From the NCBI GenBank assembly GCA_964565805.1, contig CAZMGH010000002.1, positions 46,084 to 110,083 on the forward strand: DNA of 64,000 nt, written 5' to 3'. The number at the start of each line of letters is the position of its first letter. Positions within the stretch are counted from its first letter, which is position 1. Position numbers and translations under genes: made by a program. The notes beneath the pieces were generated by a model. The model saw only the letters and a list, made by a program, of their open reading frames with translations, searched no databases and was not told the DNA's origin. Positions 732 to 40,181 of the stretch are shown here, piece after piece. The stretch comes from an uncultured Lachnospiraceae bacterium (GTDB taxonomy: Bacteria; Bacillota; Clostridia; Lachnospirales; Lachnospiraceae).

Positions 732-2323
732 TAATTTTTTGCCCGATTTTTAATTTTGGAATAGAACAGGTATAATAAAATCAGCACCCAGACTGCCGCT
801 AAAGTGATCAAAAGTCCCTTAGCCATAGTGGGAAGAGGGCCCAAATCTTCCTCCTGTCCGGATGAGGATGTGTTTTCATCCAGGTGGTAAAGGGCAGTCA
901 CATCACTGTAAAGACTTTCTATGTAAGCATTATCTACGGTTTCACCTCTCCGCATGGATTTGGTCACATCCTCGATCATTTGTCCCGCGGCATCTCTAAG
1001 GGAAGCAGAACCATTAAATACCGGCGTAATAAAGGTGTCCTGGATATGATCCAGCAAAAGCGTGGTAGCCTTGATCTTTACATCATAGTACATGTCGTTG
1101 TCCTCACCGGCCCGGGAAAGATAGTTCTGGTATTCTTCAGATTCCTGAGCGTCAAGGGTGACAGGCACATAGCCCTCTGTGGTGGCATAGCTGATCTGGA
1201 CATCATTGGTCAAAAGATACTGGGCAAACAGCCAGGAAGCCAGCACTTCCTGGGGATCTTCCTTGTTAAAAATACAAAGAGACGGTCCCTGGGAGATCAT
1301 TTTAGGATTTTCAGGATCATACTGGGGGATCGTCATGACCTCAATGTTAAAATCCACCACAGATTCCTCCGCAATATCCACCAGCGGCGCATCGCTGCCC
1401 ATCCAGGTGGCCCCGGCAGTAGAGTCAATGGCAAAGACGCACTGGCCCGCATTAAGGAAGTTGGCCGGATAGCCAGAAATTTTAAAGGTGGAAAATGCCC
1501 GTGTTCCCGCATGTTCCGCAATGGTATAGAGAATATCTTCCGTCGTGTCGTTAAAAATCTGAATATCCCCGGTTTCTGTAGAATATCCCGCGTTTTGCTG
1601 GTAAAGCATCTGGATCATCATATTGTCGGTGGACTTGTAAATAAATGGGATCATAACGTCCTGGCCGTTAAGCATAAATGTGCCGTCCTCATTTTTTTGT
1701 GTGGCAGCTTCCGATACTTCCCAAATAAAATCCCAGGTGAGAGTTTCCGGCAGGGTGTAGCCTAAGGCTTCCACATAGTCTGTGTTAATGTAGCATACCT
1801 CTGTGGACCGCATAAAAGGCAGGGCATAATAATGACCGGCAATGGTACACTCCTCTAAAAACTGGGGGACGATTCGTGACTTTTCCGGAGACTGAAATAA
1901 AAGTTCGCTGCCGCCCATACCGTATTTTTCATCATCCATAAGCTCATCCAAGGGGACAACCACGTTATCGCCAGTCATATAGGTGGCGATGTGGTCCGGA
2001 TAAGTGATACATACGTTAGGGGTGGTGTTGGTGGAAATATTAGTGATTACGTCATTGTAAATATCTCCGTAGTCTGTATACAGGCGCAGTTCAACGGTAA
2101 TATTTGGATACAGGGACTGGAAATCTTCAATCGCCTGGCGGTAAATATCAGTCTGGCGGACATTTGTATCATTTTTTGCCCAGAAGGTGATTTCATAGTT
2201 TCTGGAAGTGTCAAATTCCTCAGGAACAGAAAATGCCGTCTGCTCCTGCTGGCCGTGACAACCGGACAGGAGCGTTCCGGATATAAGGGCCAGGGCCACG
2301 GCGCCCACAGATATTTTTTTCAT
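728..2323 (-). CDS. ABC transporter extracellular solute-binding lipoprotein (CUT1 family) with C-terminal TM helix
   Basis: Lipobox LLSGC; SBP features (QGPSLCIF, WLFAQYLL, EGYVPV); hydrophobic C-terminus GLLITLAAVWVLILLYLFY then KIKNRAK; ATGA overlap with the upstream permease. Confidence 0.85.
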   Translation of the reverse strand: MKKISVGAVALALISGTLLSGCHGQQEQTAFSVPEEFDTSRNYEITFWAKNDTNVRQTDIYRQAIEDFQSLYPNITVELRLYTDYGDIYNDVITNISTNTTPNVCITYPDHIATYMTGDNVVVPLDELMDDEKYGMGGSELLFQSPEKSRIVPQFLEECTIAGHYYALPFMRSTEVCYINTDYVEALGYTLPETLTWDFIWEVSEAATQKNEDGTFMLNGQDVMIPFIYKSTDNMMIQMLYQQNAGYSTETGDIQIFNDTTEDILYTIAEHAGTRAFSTFKISGYPANFLNAGQCVFAIDSTAGATWMGSDAPLVDIAEESVVDFNIEVMTIPQYDPENPKMISQGPSLCIFNKEDPQEVLASWLFAQYLLTNDVQISYATTEGYVPVTLDAQESEEYQNYLSRAGEDNDMYYDVKIKATTLLLDHIQDTFITPVFNGSASLRDAAGQMIEDVTKSMRRGETVDNAYIESLYSDVTALYHLDENTSSSGQEEDLGPLPTMAKGLLITLAAVWVLILLYLFYSKIKNRAKNY

Positions 2324-33749: not shown

Positions 33750-34661
33750 ATGGAAGAAAACAAAAGCTTTAACCCGGCAGACGCCAACCAGATCACCCGC
33801 CGGTATCTGGATTCGATTCTTATTGAAGAGCGGCTGATCGATGCTGTAAAGGCATCGGCAAAGATTACATTGTTTGGCCATACTTTTGATACACCTGTGC
33901 TGATGCCGGCCTTTTCCCATTTGGATGAGTGGGTAAAAAACGGTAAAAACAGCATGGTAGAGTATGCCATCGCGGCAAAAAATCTAAATGCCTTGAATTT
34001 TGTAGGTATGCGTGAAAATGAAAAAATGGACGAGATTTTTCAGACCGGAGCGCCTACGATCCGGATCATTAAGCCCTACGCTGACAGAAAGAAAATCTTT
34101 GATCAGATTGACTATGCCAAGGCCCATGGCGCTGCTGGTGTGGGAATGGATATTGACCATATTTTCGGCAGTCAGGGCGATTATGATCTTGTTCAGGGAG
34201 AACCTATGGCCCCCCAGTCCATGGATATGATCCGGGAGTATGTTCAGGCAGCGGCTCCGCTTCCTTTTATTGTTAAAGGTGTGCTCAGCGTTACGGACGC
34301 TCTTAAATGTGCCAGGTGCCAGGTGGCCGGGATTCTTGTAAGCCATCATTCCGGACGGATGCCTTATGCCATTCCTCCGTTAAAAGTTGTTCCGGAAATC
34401 CGCAGGGAACTGGGAAATGAAATAAAGATTTTTGCGGACTGCGGCATCCAACGGGGCGCCGACGTGTTTAAGGCCCTGGCCTTAGGATGCGACGGAGCGG
34501 CTGTTGGACGGGCCATTTTGCCGGCCCTTAAGGCGGAAGGCCATGAGGGCGTGGAAAAATATATCCGCCAGATGAATGACGAGCTGAGGATGATCATGGG
34601 CTTTACCGGGATCGCCACTGTGGCGGATATGGATCCATCGGTGCTGTGGCTGCCGAAATAA
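33750..34661 (+). CDS. FMN-dependent alpha-hydroxy-acid dehydrogenase/oxidase family
   Basis: TPVLMPAF, IVKGVLS, LVSHHSGR, DCGIQRGADVFKALALG. Confidence 0.85.
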   Translation: MEENKSFNPADANQITRRYLDSILIEERLIDAVKASAKITLFGHTFDTPVLMPAFSHLDEWVKNGKNSMVEYAIAAKNLNALNFVGMRENEKMDEIFQTGAPTIRIIKPYADRKKIFDQIDYAKAHGAAGVGMDIDHIFGSQGDYDLVQGEPMAPQSMDMIREYVQAAAPLPFIVKGVLSVTDALKCARCQVAGILVSHHSGRMPYAIPPLKVVPEIRRELGNEIKIFADCGIQRGADVFKALALGCDGAAVGRAILPALKAEGHEGVEKYIRQMNDELRMIMGFTGIATVADMDPSVLWLPK

Positions 34662-34702
34662 TTGGGCCGGAATAATTGGTTTTGCTTGAAATCGTTTGAC
34701 TG

Positions 34703-34785
34703 TTGACAAGGAAGAGTTTTTTGTAGTAGACTATTAATGAAAGAAAAGCAAAGGCGCTGGGAATTCGGGTTTCCAGCGTTTTTTT
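34703..34785 (+). promoter_or_regulatory. Promoter plus leader terminator with overlapping ANTAR-like hairpin
   Basis: TTGACA 34703-34708; candidate -10 TAGACT 34727-34732; AGC-AAAGGC-GCT at 34747-34758 overlaps the 5' arm of a 10-bp terminator stem (34754-34779, loop TTCGGG) followed by a T run, upstream of the RBS. Confidence 0.65.
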
Positions 34786-34815
34786 GATTGGAAAAAGTTA
34801 AGGAGGATAAGGTCT

Positions 34816-36129
34816 ATGCAGGAATTAATTGACCACACCGAAGGTATTAACCGGCTTATGGCCCGCTTTGGCGTAAAGTTCGGGATTTATAAAAACGGGG
34901 AATTTCATGAACAGCTGTTTCCCTTTGATGCCATTCCCCGGGTGATTCCTCATAAAGATTTTCAGTATCTTGAAAAGGGACTGATCCAGCGGGTAGACGC
35001 GTTAAACTGTTTTTTAAGAGACATCTACACAGACAAAAAGATCATTAAGGATCAGGTGGTCCCGGAGGATTTTGTATTTTCCTCATCCGGGTATCTTCCC
35101 CAGTGTGATCATTTTACGCCGCCCAAAGGGATTTACAGCCATATTTCCGGAATCGACCTGGTACTGGGAAAGGATAAGGAATGGTATATTTTAGAGGATA
35201 ATTTAAGAATCCCATCAGGAGCTTCCTATCCTTTAATTGCCCGGGAGATCTGCCGGAGAGTTTCGCCGGTCACTTTTGCTAGCCATCCTGTTGTAGATAA
35301 CCGGAACTATGCGTCAATGTTAAAAGAAACCCTGGATTGGGTCAATACAGGAGGCATACCGGTGATCATGACGCCGGGGCGGTATAACGCGGCCTATTTT
35401 GAACATTCCTACCTGGCAGAGCGGACAAAAAGCGCGCTGGCCACATGTTCGGATCTGTTTGTAGAGGATAATTATCTGTACTACAGGGATTATCGGAATA
35501 CAAAGCAAAAGGTAGGCGTTATCTACCGGAGAATTTCGGATGAGTATCTGGATCCAATGACATTTTTGCCGGAATCCCTCATCGGTATTCCTAATATTAT
35601 GGATGTATACTGCAGCGGTCATGTGGCCATCGTCAATGCCCCGGGCAACGGAATCGGCGATGATAAAGGAATCTACTATTTTGTTCCTAAAATGATCCGC
35701 TATTATTTAGGGGAAGAACCTATATTAAAAAATGCGCCTACATACCTGCCTTTTTATGAGGAGGACCGGAAATATGTTCTGGATCATCTAAACAGACTGG
35801 TGGTTAAGGATGTGTCTGAAGCCGGGGGCTATGGCGTGATCTTTGGAGACTCTCTGACCCGGGAAAAGCTTGAGTCTCTTAAAGCGCTGATACAACAAGA
35901 GCCGAGAAGGTTTATTGCCCAGGAAGTCATCGACTTTCAGGATATGGAAGTTATGGACGGGAATGAGCGAGTTTTGCGTAAGGCGGACCTGCGGGCCTTT
36001 GTCCTTACAGGACAGACCACACGGGTATGGGCCAGCGGGCTCACCCGTTTTTCAAGAAACGCGGATTCCTTTGTAGTTAATTCGTCACAGGGAGGAGGAT
36101 TTAAAGACACATGGGTATTATCTCAGTAG
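34816..36129 (+). CDS. Circularly permuted ATP-grasp type 2 ligase
   Basis: FPFDAIPRVI, ISGIDLV, ILEDNLRIPSGASY, MTPGRYNAAYFEH, IYRRISDEYLDP, NAPGNGIGDDK, KDVSEAGGYG, NSSQGGGFKDTWV. Confidence 0.92.
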   Translation: MQELIDHTEGINRLMARFGVKFGIYKNGEFHEQLFPFDAIPRVIPHKDFQYLEKGLIQRVDALNCFLRDIYTDKKIIKDQVVPEDFVFSSSGYLPQCDHFTPPKGIYSHISGIDLVLGKDKEWYILEDNLRIPSGASYPLIAREICRRVSPVTFASHPVVDNRNYASMLKETLDWVNTGGIPVIMTPGRYNAAYFEHSYLAERTKSALATCSDLFVEDNYLYYRDYRNTKQKVGVIYRRISDEYLDPMTFLPESLIGIPNIMDVYCSGHVAIVNAPGNGIGDDKGIYYFVPKMIRYYLGEEPILKNAPTYLPFYEEDRKYVLDHLNRLVVKDVSEAGGYGVIFGDSLTREKLESLKALIQQEPRRFIAQEVIDFQDMEVMDGNERVLRKADLRAFVLTGQTTRVWASGLTRFSRNADSFVVNSSQGGGFKDTWVLSQ

Positions 36130-36785
36130 AAAAAGCAGATCACTTGTACTGGCTTGGCCGGTATACAGAGCGGGTGTATACCACCCTGCGGATTTTTTTC
36201 CATATTTACGATAAGATGATCGAACAGCCGGAGGGGATTTACGCGTCATATTGCCAGCGTTTAAACATCCCGGATATTTACACCTCCAACCGGCAGTTTG
36301 TTCAGTCTTATCTTTTTGATCCGGTCAATCCGGACTCCGTGTATTCCAATATGAGCAGAGCTTATGACAATGCGGTTGTCCTTAGAGATGAACTTAGCAG
36401 CAATGTGCTTTCCTACATCCAGCTGGCCTTAGATACCTTTGGAGCATGCGCCAAAACAACGGCACCTCTTTTGGAGCTTCAGCAGGTGATCGACTATCTT
36501 CTGGCTTTCTGGGGCTGCGCTGATGATTACGTGGATCAGGAGGACTGCAGGAATATTCTTAAATGTGGCAAATATGTGGAGCGGCTGGATCTTTACATCC
36601 GGCTGGATTATCACAAAGATGAACTGGAAAAAGAATATAAAAAACTGATCAATCGTCTCCAGCGGGCAAATCTGTGCTATAATGAAAAAAATCTGGAGCA
36701 CATTGAGACGCTTATTCATCAGGGGATGCCCCAGACAACAGATAAGCAGGAGGCATTAGGCTGTCTTGGAGGGCTTATTACCTGA
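36111..36785 (+). CDS. Alpha-E domain protein
   Basis: LYWLGRYTER and KYVERLD (the two ER motifs), DPVNPDSV, AYDNAVVLRDELS. Confidence 0.88.
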   Translation: MGIISVEKADHLYWLGRYTERVYTTLRIFFHIYDKMIEQPEGIYASYCQRLNIPDIYTSNRQFVQSYLFDPVNPDSVYSNMSRAYDNAVVLRDELSSNVLSYIQLALDTFGACAKTTAPLLELQQVIDYLLAFWGCADDYVDQEDCRNILKCGKYVERLDLYIRLDYHKDELEKEYKKLINRLQRANLCYNEKNLEHIETLIHQGMPQTTDKQEALGCLGGLIT

Positions 36786-36801
36786 AGACAGCCAAAACAT
36801 T

Positions 36802-37590
36802 ATGAAAAAACTAAAATTTAAGTATGGTATGAGGCTGGATTTTTCCTCTCCCGTAACCGGGCATTACTTTGCTTTGCGGTGTATTCCCCAAAGTTCATCT
36901 AGGCAGGAGATCACTCTGACCCGGTGCCAGGTCATGCCGGATGGGGAGCTTTATGAAATAAAGGACGGCTTTGGCAACATGAAACTTAGCGGATGCATTT
37001 TGGATCCCCATGATTATTTTGAATATGATATTGAAGGAACGGCCCTGGTTCAGGGAATGGGAGAGGAGGAAGGCCCCCTTCATCCGATGTATAAATACCC
37101 ATCCAGGTACACAGCCTGTGAGCCGGTGGTTATAGATTATGCCTCCAGGCTGGCCCGGGAATGTAAGTTATCGGGAGCGCATACCCCTTTGGAAAAGGCA
37201 GTTTATGTCATGAATGACCTGTACAGGCATTTTTCTTATGCGCCTTCGGTGACAGGAATCCATACCACCGCCGCCCAGGCTCTTACTTTAGGTAAAGGTG
37301 TGTGCCAGGATTATGCCCATATTATGATCGCTCTTATGCGCTATATGGGCGTACCTGCCAGATACGTCAACGGTTTGATGATCGGCGAGGGCTTTAGCCA
37401 TGCCTGGGTGGAAATTTATACTGGTACCGGATGGTACGGGCTGGATCCCACCAATTGTTTGCATATTGATGATTATTATATTAAGCTGGCCTGGGGGAGA
37501 GATTACGGGGACTGTGTCATTGACAAAGGCCGGTTCCTTGGCAGCGCCGGACAAACTCAGACCATTACTGTAAATGTGGAGGAGATCTAA
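36802..37590 (+). CDS. Transglutaminase-like protein with intact triad
   Basis: GVCQDYAH (Cys), SHAWVE (His), LDPTN (Asp), GRDYGD; N-terminal Bact_transglu_N-like segment. Confidence 0.92.
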   Translation: MKKLKFKYGMRLDFSSPVTGHYFALRCIPQSSSRQEITLTRCQVMPDGELYEIKDGFGNMKLSGCILDPHDYFEYDIEGTALVQGMGEEEGPLHPMYKYPSRYTACEPVVIDYASRLARECKLSGAHTPLEKAVYVMNDLYRHFSYAPSVTGIHTTAAQALTLGKGVCQDYAHIMIALMRYMGVPARYVNGLMIGEGFSHAWVEIYTGTGWYGLDPTNCLHIDDYYIKLAWGRDYGDCVIDKGRFLGSAGQTQTITVNVEEI

Positions 37591-37591
37591 G

Positions 37592-38530
37592 ATGACTCAG
37601 ACAGTTGTGTCTATGGAACTGCCGGTGGACGAATACCTGCAGATCAAAAAGAATCGGATCATGCCGGAACATCCCACAGGGGATGAAAAACGCATTGCCA
37701 TTGTTACCGGGACCCACGGGGATGAGCTGGAAGGCCAGCTTGTCTGCTACGAGCTGCTTCGCCGTCTGAAGGCCCAGCCGGGCCAGCTTAAAGGCATTGT
37801 GGATGTTTATCCCGCGTTAAACCCCCTGGGGATTGATTCCATTACCCGGGGGATTCCTATGTTTGACTTGGATATGAACCGGATCTTTCCAGGAAGTGAC
37901 CAGGGGCCTATGATGGAGACTTTAGTATACCGTCTTATGGAAGATTTAAGGGGAGCGGATCTTTGCATCGATATTCATGCCAGCAATATTTTTCTCATGG
38001 AGCTGCCCCAGATACGGATCAATGAAATGACTGCTCAAACGCTTATCCCTTTGGCTAAAAATATGAATGTGGATTTTATATGGGTTCATGCTTCAGCTAC
38101 AGTGCTGGAATCTACGCTGGCTTTTAGCTTGAATAAGATCCATACCCCCACCCTGGTAGTGGAAATGGGGGTAGGGATGCGGATCACAAAAGAATATGGC
38201 CATCAGCTGACCGAAGGGATTTTTAACACAATGAAAGCTCTTGGAATATGGGAAGGAGAAACTGGCCCTGTGCGTAGTCCTATAATCTCAACAGACCGGC
38301 AGATTGGCTATCTTAATGCGGACCGGGCGGGAATCTATGTACCCTGCGTCCAGATCGGCCAGGCCGTGAAAGAAGGGGACCGGCTGGGAGAAATTTTAAA
38401 TCCTCTCACAGGAGATGTGGAGCAGGAGGTCAGATCCCCTATGGACGGTATCTTATTTACCTGCAGGGAGTATCCGGTGGTTTACAGCGGATCTTTACTG
38501 GGAAGGATCGTGGGAGGTGAACATCAGTGA
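37592..38530 (+). CDS. M14-type succinylglutamate desuccinylase/aspartoacylase family hydrolase (apparently active)
   Basis: GTHGDE zinc motif, DMNRIFPG, IDIHAS, EMG; C-terminal barrel-sandwich region. Confidence 0.9.
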   Translation: MTQTVVSMELPVDEYLQIKKNRIMPEHPTGDEKRIAIVTGTHGDELEGQLVCYELLRRLKAQPGQLKGIVDVYPALNPLGIDSITRGIPMFDLDMNRIFPGSDQGPMMETLVYRLMEDLRGADLCIDIHASNIFLMELPQIRINEMTAQTLIPLAKNMNVDFIWVHASATVLESTLAFSLNKIHTPTLVVEMGVGMRITKEYGHQLTEGIFNTMKALGIWEGETGPVRSPIISTDRQIGYLNADRAGIYVPCVQIGQAVKEGDRLGEILNPLTGDVEQEVRSPMDGILFTCREYPVVYSGSLLGRIVGGEHQ

Positions 38531-39462
38531 GAAAAGCAGAAATTTTTTCCATGGACAGTCCTTACAGGGAAACATTAAAGATCACCGGCTATACGTTTGG
38601 CCACGGGCAAAAGTCTGCCTGTATTATTGGGAGCATGCGGGGAAATGAGGTTCAGCAGCTTTACATATGCTCTCAGATCATAAGAAAGCTGAAAAAACTG
38701 GAAGCCTGCGATTCCATTGTGGCGGATAAGGAGATTCTTGTGATCCCTTCAGTAAACCATCATTCTATGAACATCGGAAAACGGTTCTGGCCGGTGGATA
38801 ATACGGATATTAACCGGATGTTTCCCGGATATGACCAGGGGGAAACCACTCAGCGCATTGCCGCAGGGGTTTTCCAGCAGGCCAAGGATTATGATTATGG
38901 TATCCAGTTTGCCAGCTTTTATATGCCCGGGGATTTTATCCCTCATGTTCGGATGATGGACACAGGCAAGCAAAACACCAGCCTGGCGGGGCTGTTCGGC
39001 CTTCCCTATGTAGTCGTGCGCAAGCCCAGGCCTATTGATACCACAACATTAAATTATAACTGGCAGATCTGGGATACAAACGCATTTTCCGTATATACGA
39101 CGGAAACGGATTTTATTGATGAGGTGTCTGCCCGTCAGGCAGTGGCGGCGGTGCTTCGTTTTCTCACCCGGATGGGCATTTTAAAATATCACAGTCATAA
39201 CGGCTATATTGCCACAGTCATCGGCGAGGAGGAGCTTACTTCTGTCCGAACAACCATGGGAGGCATTTACCGCCGTCTGTGTCATCCGGGAGATGAGATT
39301 CATATGGGAGAGCCTTTGGCGGAAATCGTCCATCCTTATGAGGGAAACGTTATATCCACCGTACTTTCACCGACAGAGGGAATCGTATTTTTTACCCATA
39401 AAAAACCTTTAGTTACGGAAAATGAAGTGATCTGCAAGATCATACGCAGGATGCACCAGTAA
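38527..39462 (+). CDS. M14/AstE-like paralogue with degenerate metal site
   Basis: GSMRGNE in place of HGxE; DINRMFPG retained; IQFAS in place of IDxH; GTGA overlap with the previous gene. Confidence 0.85.
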   Translation: MRKAEIFSMDSPYRETLKITGYTFGHGQKSACIIGSMRGNEVQQLYICSQIIRKLKKLEACDSIVADKEILVIPSVNHHSMNIGKRFWPVDNTDINRMFPGYDQGETTQRIAAGVFQQAKDYDYGIQFASFYMPGDFIPHVRMMDTGKQNTSLAGLFGLPYVVVRKPRPIDTTTLNYNWQIWDTNAFSVYTTETDFIDEVSARQAVAAVLRFLTRMGILKYHSHNGYIATVIGEEELTSVRTTMGGIYRRLCHPGDEIHMGEPLAEIVHPYEGNVISTVLSPTEGIVFFTHKKPLVTENEVICKIIRRMHQ

Positions 39463-39496
39463 AAAAAGCGCCGGAAACACTTGCTGCTTCCGGCGC
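39461..39496 (-). terminator. Terminator for the flavin reductase gene
   Basis: GCGCCGGAA...TTCCGGCGC stem with an A7 run on its left (U tract on the minus strand). Confidence 0.6.
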
Positions 39497-39514: not shown

Positions 39515-40087
39515 TCAGCCTTTCATTAAATCAGCGCCGCTGTGCCATGCCTGACCAACTTTTTCGCCAATGGCATAGTATCCGTTTTGCATCTGGTCAA
39601 AGGCGAAAGCCTGAAGCTTTCCGGCGTCAATCTTTCCCGCGTCATCCAGCACTTTTTCGTCAGCAATCACGTTGACGATTTTTCCAAGAACCCGAAGGCC
39701 ATAGGGCTGATTTTGCATTTCCACAACCTCACATTCCAGTGTGAGAGGATATTCTGTAATAACAGGCGCATCGATCCGCTGGCTCTTAACAGCGTGAAGG
39801 CCTGTACGCTGGAATTTATCTACCATTTTGTTCGCCGTAGCAATACCAAGGAAATCAGATTCTTTTAAAGTGTCTGTTCCGGGAACCGCTAAAGTGAAGG
39901 CTTTCCGGGTTTCCAGATTGGCTACGGTTTTATGTTCTGCCTCCAGATTCAGCGCCACCATATCTTCCGCGCAGATCCCTCCCCATGCCATCATCATCAC
40001 ATCGACCGTATCATCATCATTATATGTACCGATCATATAGGTAGGCATGGGAAACAGGTAAGGTTTAACTCCAAAATCTTTTGTCAT
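39515..40087 (-). CDS. Flavin reductase-like (flavoredoxin) FMN-binding protein
   Basis: PYLFPMPTYMIGTY, MMMAWGG, HKTVAN, APVITEYPLTLEC. Confidence 0.88.
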   Translation of the reverse strand: MTKDFGVKPYLFPMPTYMIGTYNDDDTVDVMMMAWGGICAEDMVALNLEAEHKTVANLETRKAFTLAVPGTDTLKESDFLGIATANKMVDKFQRTGLHAVKSQRIDAPVITEYPLTLECEVVEMQNQPYGLRVLGKIVNVIADEKVLDDAGKIDAGKLQAFAFDQMQNGYYAIGEKVGQAWHSGADLMKG

Positions 40088-40181
40088 TATTAAGACCCCT
40101 TTCATGTAAAATATAAGAACAATTTAGTCGGCTGAATTGTTATGATCTGTAATTTATCATAGCAGAAAGAAAATGAAAGAC

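Follow-up and report, generated by a model that had tools for sequence, protein, structure and literature searches.

One hexaloop hairpin in the leader of an ATP-grasp operon: a probable attenuator of an ANTAR (NitR) nitrogen regulon in a Lachnospiraceae bacterium

The leader of the circularly permuted ATP-grasp (CP-ATP-grasp) operon described here is, as we hold with good confidence, a transcription attenuator of the nitrogen regulon of the ANTAR protein NitR, and would work through a single 5′-terminal hexaloop hairpin of the mRNA. Judging from sequence comparison across relatives, the operon is very probably a conserved member of this nitrogen antitermination regulon. Unless a genome (G), contig (C) or locus (L) handle is given, coordinates refer to the window, that is, the whole stretch of 64,000 nucleotides that was analysed.

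Results

The intergenic region at 34662-34815 separates the gene of an FMN-dependent dehydrogenase from a five-gene ATP-grasp operon and contains, in 5′ to 3′ order, a promoter, a hairpin, a terminator, an RBS and the ATG of the CP-ATP-grasp operon. The features of the region and of the operon are as follows.

33750-34661: FMN-dependent dehydrogenase gene, the upstream neighbour
34703-34732, + strand: sigma-70-type promoter, TTGACA-18-TAGACT (promoter scan, 10/12 match)
34703..34708, + strand: −35 box TTGACA, followed by an 18-nt spacer (promoter scan)
34727..34732, + strand: −10 box TAGACT (promoter scan)
34747..34758, + strand: hairpin AGC / AAAGGC / GCT, putative NitR (ANTAR) site and P2 equivalent (sequence, folding, covariation)
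34747-34749, 34750-34755 and 34756-34758, + strand: the parts of this hairpin, AGC, the loop AAAGGC (A at position 1, G at position 4) and GCT
34750..34785, + strand: intrinsic terminator (RNAfold), 34750-34764 pairing with 34769-34783 around the loop UCGG
34800-34806, + strand: RBS AAGGAGG (sequence)
[quoted passage not shown]
34816..39462, + strand: operon of five genes (Pfam matches), as in the next four lines
+ strand: CP-ATP-grasp, 437 aa (PF14403/PF04174)
+ strand: alpha-E (PF04168)
+ strand: transglutaminase-like (PF01841 with PF08379)
+ strand: two AstE/AspA-type deacylase homologues (PF24827 twice)

The promoter was the top match across the 7 kb scanned, and from its position the transcript would start at about 34739-34741. 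The arms of the terminator are GCGCTGGGAA and TTTCCAGCGT, then seven T at 34779-34785. The gap between the terminator and the RBS is too short for any further promoter, so the operon would be expressed via read-through only. The original prediction for this DNA had described a 3-bp hairpin, AGC-AAAGGC-GCT, with A1 and G4 in its loop and overlapping a terminator ahead of the RBS, and every one of its coordinates proved correct in the sequence and in RNAfold. At the other end of the operon, 6 nt past the last stop codon, a 12-bp GC-rich hairpin with A and T runs on either side (39468-39496) faces a convergent flavin-reductase gene (39515-40105, minus strand) and probably ends the operon as a bidirectional terminator.

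The loop and 3′ arm of the hairpin make up the first nine nucleotides of the terminator 5′ arm (positions 34750-34758 are common to both), and the two structures are consequently mutually exclusive. Folding with RNAfold gave −18.5 kcal/mol for the terminator (z = −3.05 against shuffles) and only −1.1 kcal/mol for the small hairpin on its own. A simple consensus terminator scanner did not list the 34750-34785 terminator despite this folding energy, probably since part of the T tract is taken up in the stem. The overlap was kept in 39/39 aligned sites. At 34747-34758 the hairpin stem has 3 bp, the minimum of a range of 3-9 bp across the family, and over the 39 sites 85.5% of the stem cells were paired and 34 cells had changed on both sides. 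The closing C-G was invariant, no unpaired cell occurred in the two pairs adjoining it, and the covariation values of the hairpin were reached by none of 500 shuffles and by no slid register. For the terminator the same 39 sites showed 100% of cells paired and 78 changed on both sides; these counts lean towards the covariance model, since the sites were found with a terminator model, in which the 5′ arm of the hairpin was not modelled as paired. On sequence, folding and covariation, then, hairpin and terminator exclude each other and the terminator is dominant. The loop read AAAGGC in 29/38 sites, its G4 was invariant in these 38 and in 51 related sites, and A1, replaced by G in 3/38 and 7/51 sites, was kept in about 85-90%.

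Located at about +1 to +20, the inverted repeat could instead be the DNA operator of a nitrogen-responsive repressor, with the terminator unrelated to it: AAAGC-N6-GCTTT is palindromic, and at almost every site the element directly follows the −10 box, a typical operator position. We regard this as improbable, given that the arms vary with pairing kept (GC, AU and GU exchanges) and the asymmetric loop is what is conserved, the reverse of a dimeric operator. The loop and 3′ arm, furthermore, always fall within the covarying 5′ arm of the terminator, and some relatives have a second copy about 80 nt downstream of the promoter.

Published ANTAR targets consist of two hexaloop hairpins joined by a linker of 5-12 nt, both of them required in eut (PMC3369931; their need in eut antitermination is also given in PMC8934654). 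The original prediction had likened the leader to the ANTAR targets of eut and nasR, which fits its A1/G4 hexaloop overlapping a terminator and fails for the dual hairpin, only one hairpin being found here. It had also mentioned a weak upstream AATGAA with a 2-bp stem, perhaps at the transcription start. This hexaloop is indeed present at 34736-34741, closed by T-A and T-G, and starts 4 nt after the −10 box, placing it, if the promoter is read correctly, at or before the transcript start, where it is probably not fully transcribed.

The promoter-proximal position is general. A promoter matching at least 9/12 precedes 35/38 family sites, with the TTGACA box aligned at an equal distance from the hairpin, and the distance from the −10 box to the loop has a family median of 15 nt (17 nt at the ATP-grasp leader). 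The 5′ arm of the hairpin starts at about +1 to +6, and therefore there is no room for a 12-nt hairpin plus linker; five sites with longer leaders also lacked an A..G.. hexaloop hairpin there. A search for a first hairpin (P1) in the window, the five other sites of this genome, 33 family sites and 51 ATP-grasp leaders found none that was conserved. That the leader is a canonical dual-hexaloop target with AATGAA as P1 is very improbable in this light, even though AATGAA has A1 and G4 and stands 8 nt upstream of the main hairpin stem: its stem has 2 bp, it begins too near the −10 box (4 nt) and is replaced by the unrelated attaaacagatagag in the same-genus orthologue (G001), in 30/35 promoter-bearing sites the end of the −10 box is separated from the loop by 10-18 nt, and a candidate P1, counted as any A..G.. 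hexaloop hairpin at most 40 nt upstream of the main hairpin, occurs in 6/51 ATP-grasp leaders. Set against Ramesh 2012, the ATP-grasp leader thus lacks the pair P1 and P2 with a short linker, and it has the A1/G4 hexaloop, the stem of at least 3 bp, the terminator overlap and the ANTAR protein in the genome. It also has, by sequence, the minimal site of Walshe 2022, a single hexaloop with an invariant G4 (the putative ANTAR contact).

To find further copies of the module, we searched all 110 contigs (2.70 Mb) of the assembly for AAAGGC hexaloops closed by a stem of 3 bp or longer and followed by a T run. Five more sites of identical design were recovered, and AAAGGC was the most frequent loop among the 1,578 hexaloop hairpins that overlap predicted terminator 5′ arms in this genome. 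We also built a covariance model from eight seed sites, with the terminator as structure and the loop plus 5′ flank as sequence; three of the eight seeds were ATP-grasp leaders, which favours the recovery of such leaders. The model found exactly six sites in this genome, at 42.9-53.3 bits (E 2e-8 to 5e-6), among them the ATP-grasp leader with 49.8 bits (E = 1.5e-7 over the whole genome). The next match, at 22.9 bits (C22:20233), was rejected as an ordinary terminator in which the promoter-proximal hairpin is absent. The six sites lie upstream of the following genes.

glnA, followed by nitR, the only ANTAR gene of the genome
type III glutamine synthetase (GSIII)
amtB-glnK (AmtB-PII fusion)
a CN-hydrolase of formamidase/amidase type
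an amino-acid ABC transporter
the CP-ATP-grasp operon

Such a covariance-model scan, along with a search for an ANTAR protein and for the same motif before glnA, gltB and amtB, had been proposed with the original prediction. Each had a positive outcome: six sites stood well apart from the next match, the genome encodes one ANTAR protein, directly after glnA, and the motif precedes glnA and amtB, as well as GSIII, in this genome and gltB in relatives.

Outside the window, a seventh site that the covariance model missed was seen at G000:C91:~1100-1180 (+ strand), where TATAGC-AAAGAG-GCTGTA plus a terminator comes directly after a promoter. It precedes the gene of a PotA-like ABC ATPase (368 aa) on a 3-kb contig.

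The ANTAR family (PF03861) matched one place in the genome, with 57 bits. The gene, which we call nitR, is an ORF of 183 aa on the minus strand (L002:9345-9896 = G000:C6:17344-17895), directly downstream of glnA; gatCAB/asnS come after it and glutamate-synthase-like genes lie nearby. The C-terminal 80-100 residues of NitR align with ANTAR proteins of solved structure (Rv1626, EutV and NasR), and the N-terminal part has no receiver-domain match in Pfam. Examined by eye, the N-terminal 120 residues (VVIIALKK..., ...IVISGYS...) are without the typical acidic pocket. This points to an AmiR-like pseudo-receiver that a partner protein, and not phosphorylation, would control. AmiR is about 190 aa long, similar in size to NitR. 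In the HMMER alignment, the tyrosine of the EEEAYQML segment of EutV stands opposite a histidine of NitR, and Rv1626 has a phenylalanine there; it is probably this tyrosine that has been reported to stack on G4, its numbering being uncertain.

The motif is conserved in orthologous ATP-grasp leaders, as the original prediction would require. All three other ATP-grasp operons among 60 relatives have it (G001, G033 and G029). G001, of the same genus and with a protein 94% identical, has AGC-AAAGGC-GCT together with compensatory changes in the terminator (GCGCTGGAAA/TTTCCGGCGC); its operon has another upstream neighbour than that in the window, and the promoter-hairpin-terminator unit is kept. The G033 leader reads TAAAAC-AAAGGC-GTTTTG plus a terminator, and that of G029 AGAAC-GAAGGT-GTTCT, about 450 nt upstream. 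We then considered 80 orthologous ATP-grasp loci, which are species representatives mainly of Lachnospiraceae (Mediterraneibacter, Lachnoclostridium, Blautia, Sporofaciens, Hespellia), with Oscillospiraceae and others also included; the closest orthologues come from Mediterraneibacter and Lachnoclostridium MAGs. The motif was borne by 45/80 loci, in 51 copies, each of them coding-strand and at most about 240 nt ahead of the start, at an expectation of about one false match in total. Position and strand of the matches are independent of the ATP-grasp bias among the seeds. Two Faecalibacterium loci (L078, L084) with weak model matches that lacked the loop were left out of the count.

In the closest ATP-grasp orthologues from other species (protein 74-86% identical), two hairpin/terminator modules stand in tandem, about 60-85 nt apart (L037:1351-1485, L038:1343-1480, L039:1348-1480, L041:1291-1431, L058:1334-1474 and L059:1378-1486). 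The first, AGC-AAGGGC-GCT, comes directly after the promoter and the second, GGAAGAC-AAAGGC-GTTTTCT, has a 7-bp stem; the window has one module. Two modules in series would sharpen the response.

The conservation of the unit also bears on whether 34750-34785 might be a plain terminator without regulation, such as that of the FMN-dehydrogenase gene, with the small hairpin there by chance. We find this barely credible. The upstream gene does end at 34661 without another terminator before 34750-34785; however, a strong promoter stands between that gene and the terminator, and none fits between terminator and RBS. Moreover, the promoter-hairpin-terminator unit stays with the operon in different upstream contexts, and further copies of the module stand before nitrogen genes (E-values 1e-6 to 1e-8). 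The FMN-dehydrogenase gene was rejected as the one to which the terminator belongs, on account of the intervening promoter and the different upstream context of the same-genus orthologue.

To return to the proposed NitR regulon, its likely extent can be read from the genes behind the module in relatives. Under strict filters, 65/121 genomes of the same family had at least one covariance-model match at E <= 1e-3. Among 29 of the best-scoring sites of relatives, the first gene after the motif was distributed as follows.

GSIII: 9 sites
CP-ATP-grasp: 4 sites
CTP synthase (pyrG): 3 sites
amtB: 2 sites
glutamate synthase large subunit (gltB): 2 sites
asparagine synthetase (asnB): 2 sites
amidophosphoribosyltransferase (purF): 2 sites
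glnA: 1 site
amino-acid-binding protein: 1 site
DAO-type oxidoreductase: 1 site
TauE: 1 site
GNAT: 1 site

By their assigned functions, these genes form a predicted glutamine/ammonium regulon. Glutamine-amidotransferase genes were seen behind the motif at several loci: pyrG at L022, L023 and L019:2040-2095, purF at L010 and L009, asnB at L016 and L028, and gltB at L030 and L021:1023-1084. Because the motif heads several such genes in relatives, the regulon seems to follow glutamine use, beyond ammonium uptake alone. At L009:~1730-2140 (genome G010), an IS200-type transposase gene (Y1_Tnp, 136 aa) separates the motif and terminator from the purF-like gene.

The link to ANTAR proteins was examined in the same genomes. 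One ANTAR gene of about 180-200 aa was present in 109/121 same-family genomes. Seven of these genomes (G000, G007, G010, G129, G100, G032 and G101) have the motif about 1.9 kb upstream of their ANTAR gene and on the same strand as it, and at class level so does G162; in several other genomes the motif occurs within about 15 kb of the ANTAR gene. At the family level, co-occurrence of motif and ANTAR gene gave an odds ratio of 6.8 (p = 0.012), a weak test with ANTAR near-universal in the family. At the class level (150 genomes), 30 had both, 11 the motif only, 50 ANTAR only and 59 neither (odds ratio 3.2, p = 0.003). The co-occurrence is thus only moderate. In two genomes (G033:C13:58648-58785 and G034:C19:6306-6449), the open frame with the ANTAR domain is 585-591 aa long instead of some 190 aa, which could reflect fusion to the gene upstream of it, glnA perhaps, or else a stop codon that was missed.

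Motif genomes with no ANTAR match at class level, 11 of 41, several of which have weak matches or are incomplete, raise the question of whether the same hairpin/terminator switch is read by a non-ANTAR factor, such as another RNA-binding protein, a small RNA or a small ligand. The absence of P1, which eut-type ANTAR antitermination requires, points the same way. We nevertheless consider such a factor unlikely: an A1/G4 hexaloop is the hallmark of ANTAR targets, eight genomes have the motif at the head of their glnA-ANTAR operon, and the antiterminator-specific part, of 12-18 nt, has too few nucleotides for a ligand aptamer. Nor did the element match an Rfam family; over 34000-35500 at E <= 10 nothing relevant was found and no riboswitch or T-box matched, the best match over 34711-34786 being rli40, which reached 27.7 bits where the gathering score is 100.

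Discussion

The original prediction had read the leader as a sign of nitrogen-responsive expression. This still stands as a prediction from sequence, because an ANTAR protein is present and the motif precedes nitrogen genes and is kept in orthologous ATP-grasp leaders. Under the mechanism that we propose, transcription would begin a few nucleotides upstream of the AAAGGC hairpin. By default, going by structure and folding energies, the stronger terminator would form from the hairpin loop and 3′ arm, and the transcript would end before the RBS. Active NitR would bind the 5′-terminal hexaloop hairpin once it has emerged and hold it while the 3′ arm of the terminator is transcribed 20-35 nt later, so that the terminator could not nucleate and polymerase would read into the operon. 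We infer the binding step from the type of motif, the shared regulon and the genetic linkage. NitR would presumably be active under nitrogen limitation, by analogy with NitR of Clostridium saccharobutylicum as described in the literature. More speculatively, high loop specificity and the promoter-proximal position may make up for the missing P1.

The nearest known counterpart is NitR of Clostridium. NitR is reported in PMC6316151, which cites Stutz 2007, to antiterminate GS/GOGAT genes when nitrogen is limiting, and PMC6316151 and PMC4676874 both give the glnA-nitR arrangement for Clostridium saccharobutylicum / C. acetobutylicum. As there, the protein found here is small, has its ANTAR domain at the C-terminal end, is encoded by the gene next after glnA, has nitrogen-assimilation genes as its putative targets and would act by antitermination. 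In contrast to the Clostridium system, the host is a gut bacterium of the Lachnospiraceae, the RNA target as described here consists of one 5′-terminal hexaloop with the consensus C-AAAGGC-G, and the predicted regulon is wider, with GSIII, amtB-glnK, the amidase, the ABC transporter and ATP-grasp, and in relatives asnB, purF and pyrG. In the open-access literature searched, only Walshe 2022 mentions single hexaloops, and no RNA target of NitR is described.

Compared to the eutP, eutG, eutS and eutA leaders of Enterococcus faecalis, targets of EutV/EutW, the present leaders share the A1/G4 hexaloop and a closing pair that matters (PMC3369931, PMC8934654), and the hairpin likewise overlaps the terminator 5′ arm and is weak alone, its formation being protein-dependent in eut and putatively so here. 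The eut leaders, however, have P1 and P2, 5-12 nt apart and both required in vivo, whereas one hairpin is found here; conservation in the present sites extends to all six positions of the loop and to the closing C-G, compared with only A1 and G4 in eut; and EutV is a phosphorylated response regulator, unlike NitR, whose N-terminal part has no receiver-domain Pfam match. In the EutV-RNA crystal structure, one EutV dimer contacts a single hexaloop, and the minimal site was redefined as a single hexaloop (Walshe 2022; PMC8934654). The same authors expect single-hexaloop sites where no polymerase is racing (PMC8934654). The attenuators described here would be single-hexaloop sites that act co-transcriptionally.

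AmiR/amiE of Pseudomonas aeruginosa and NasR/nasF of Klebsiella oxytoca are similar in that ANTAR proteins antiterminate nitrogen-scavenging genes, and an amidase gene is among the putative targets here too. The signal of AmiR is an amide sensed through AmiC, and that of NasR is nitrate sensed through its NIT domain. Both the ami and the nas leaders were reinterpreted as dual hairpins by Ramesh 2012 (PMC3369931).

Dozens of covarying single-hairpin attenuators a few nucleotides past their promoters contrast with the dual-hairpin definition of ANTAR targets, and they make it testable how one hairpin could beat a terminator transcribed 20-35 nt later. We lean towards the broader view that in Lachnospiraceae and neighbouring Clostridia an entire nitrogen regulon is controlled by ANTAR antiterminators that need just one 5′ hexaloop, in which case the dual-hairpin rule would not be general and the ATP-grasp operon would be co-induced when nitrogen is scarce. 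The covariance model would then offer a simple predictor of nitrogen regulons in abundant gut Clostridia.

To our knowledge, the CP-ATP-grasp / alpha-E / transglutaminase gene set is conserved across bacteria and its role has long been unexplained. If the reading proposed here is true, it would give the first physiological handle on the CP-ATP-grasp operon, which would be induced together with glutamine synthetases, AmtB and the amidase. Membership of the ATP-grasp operon in a glutamine/ammonium regulon, conserved across many genera, would point to nitrogen limitation as the relevant condition and to nitrogen scavenging or storage as the pathway neighbourhood of its role.
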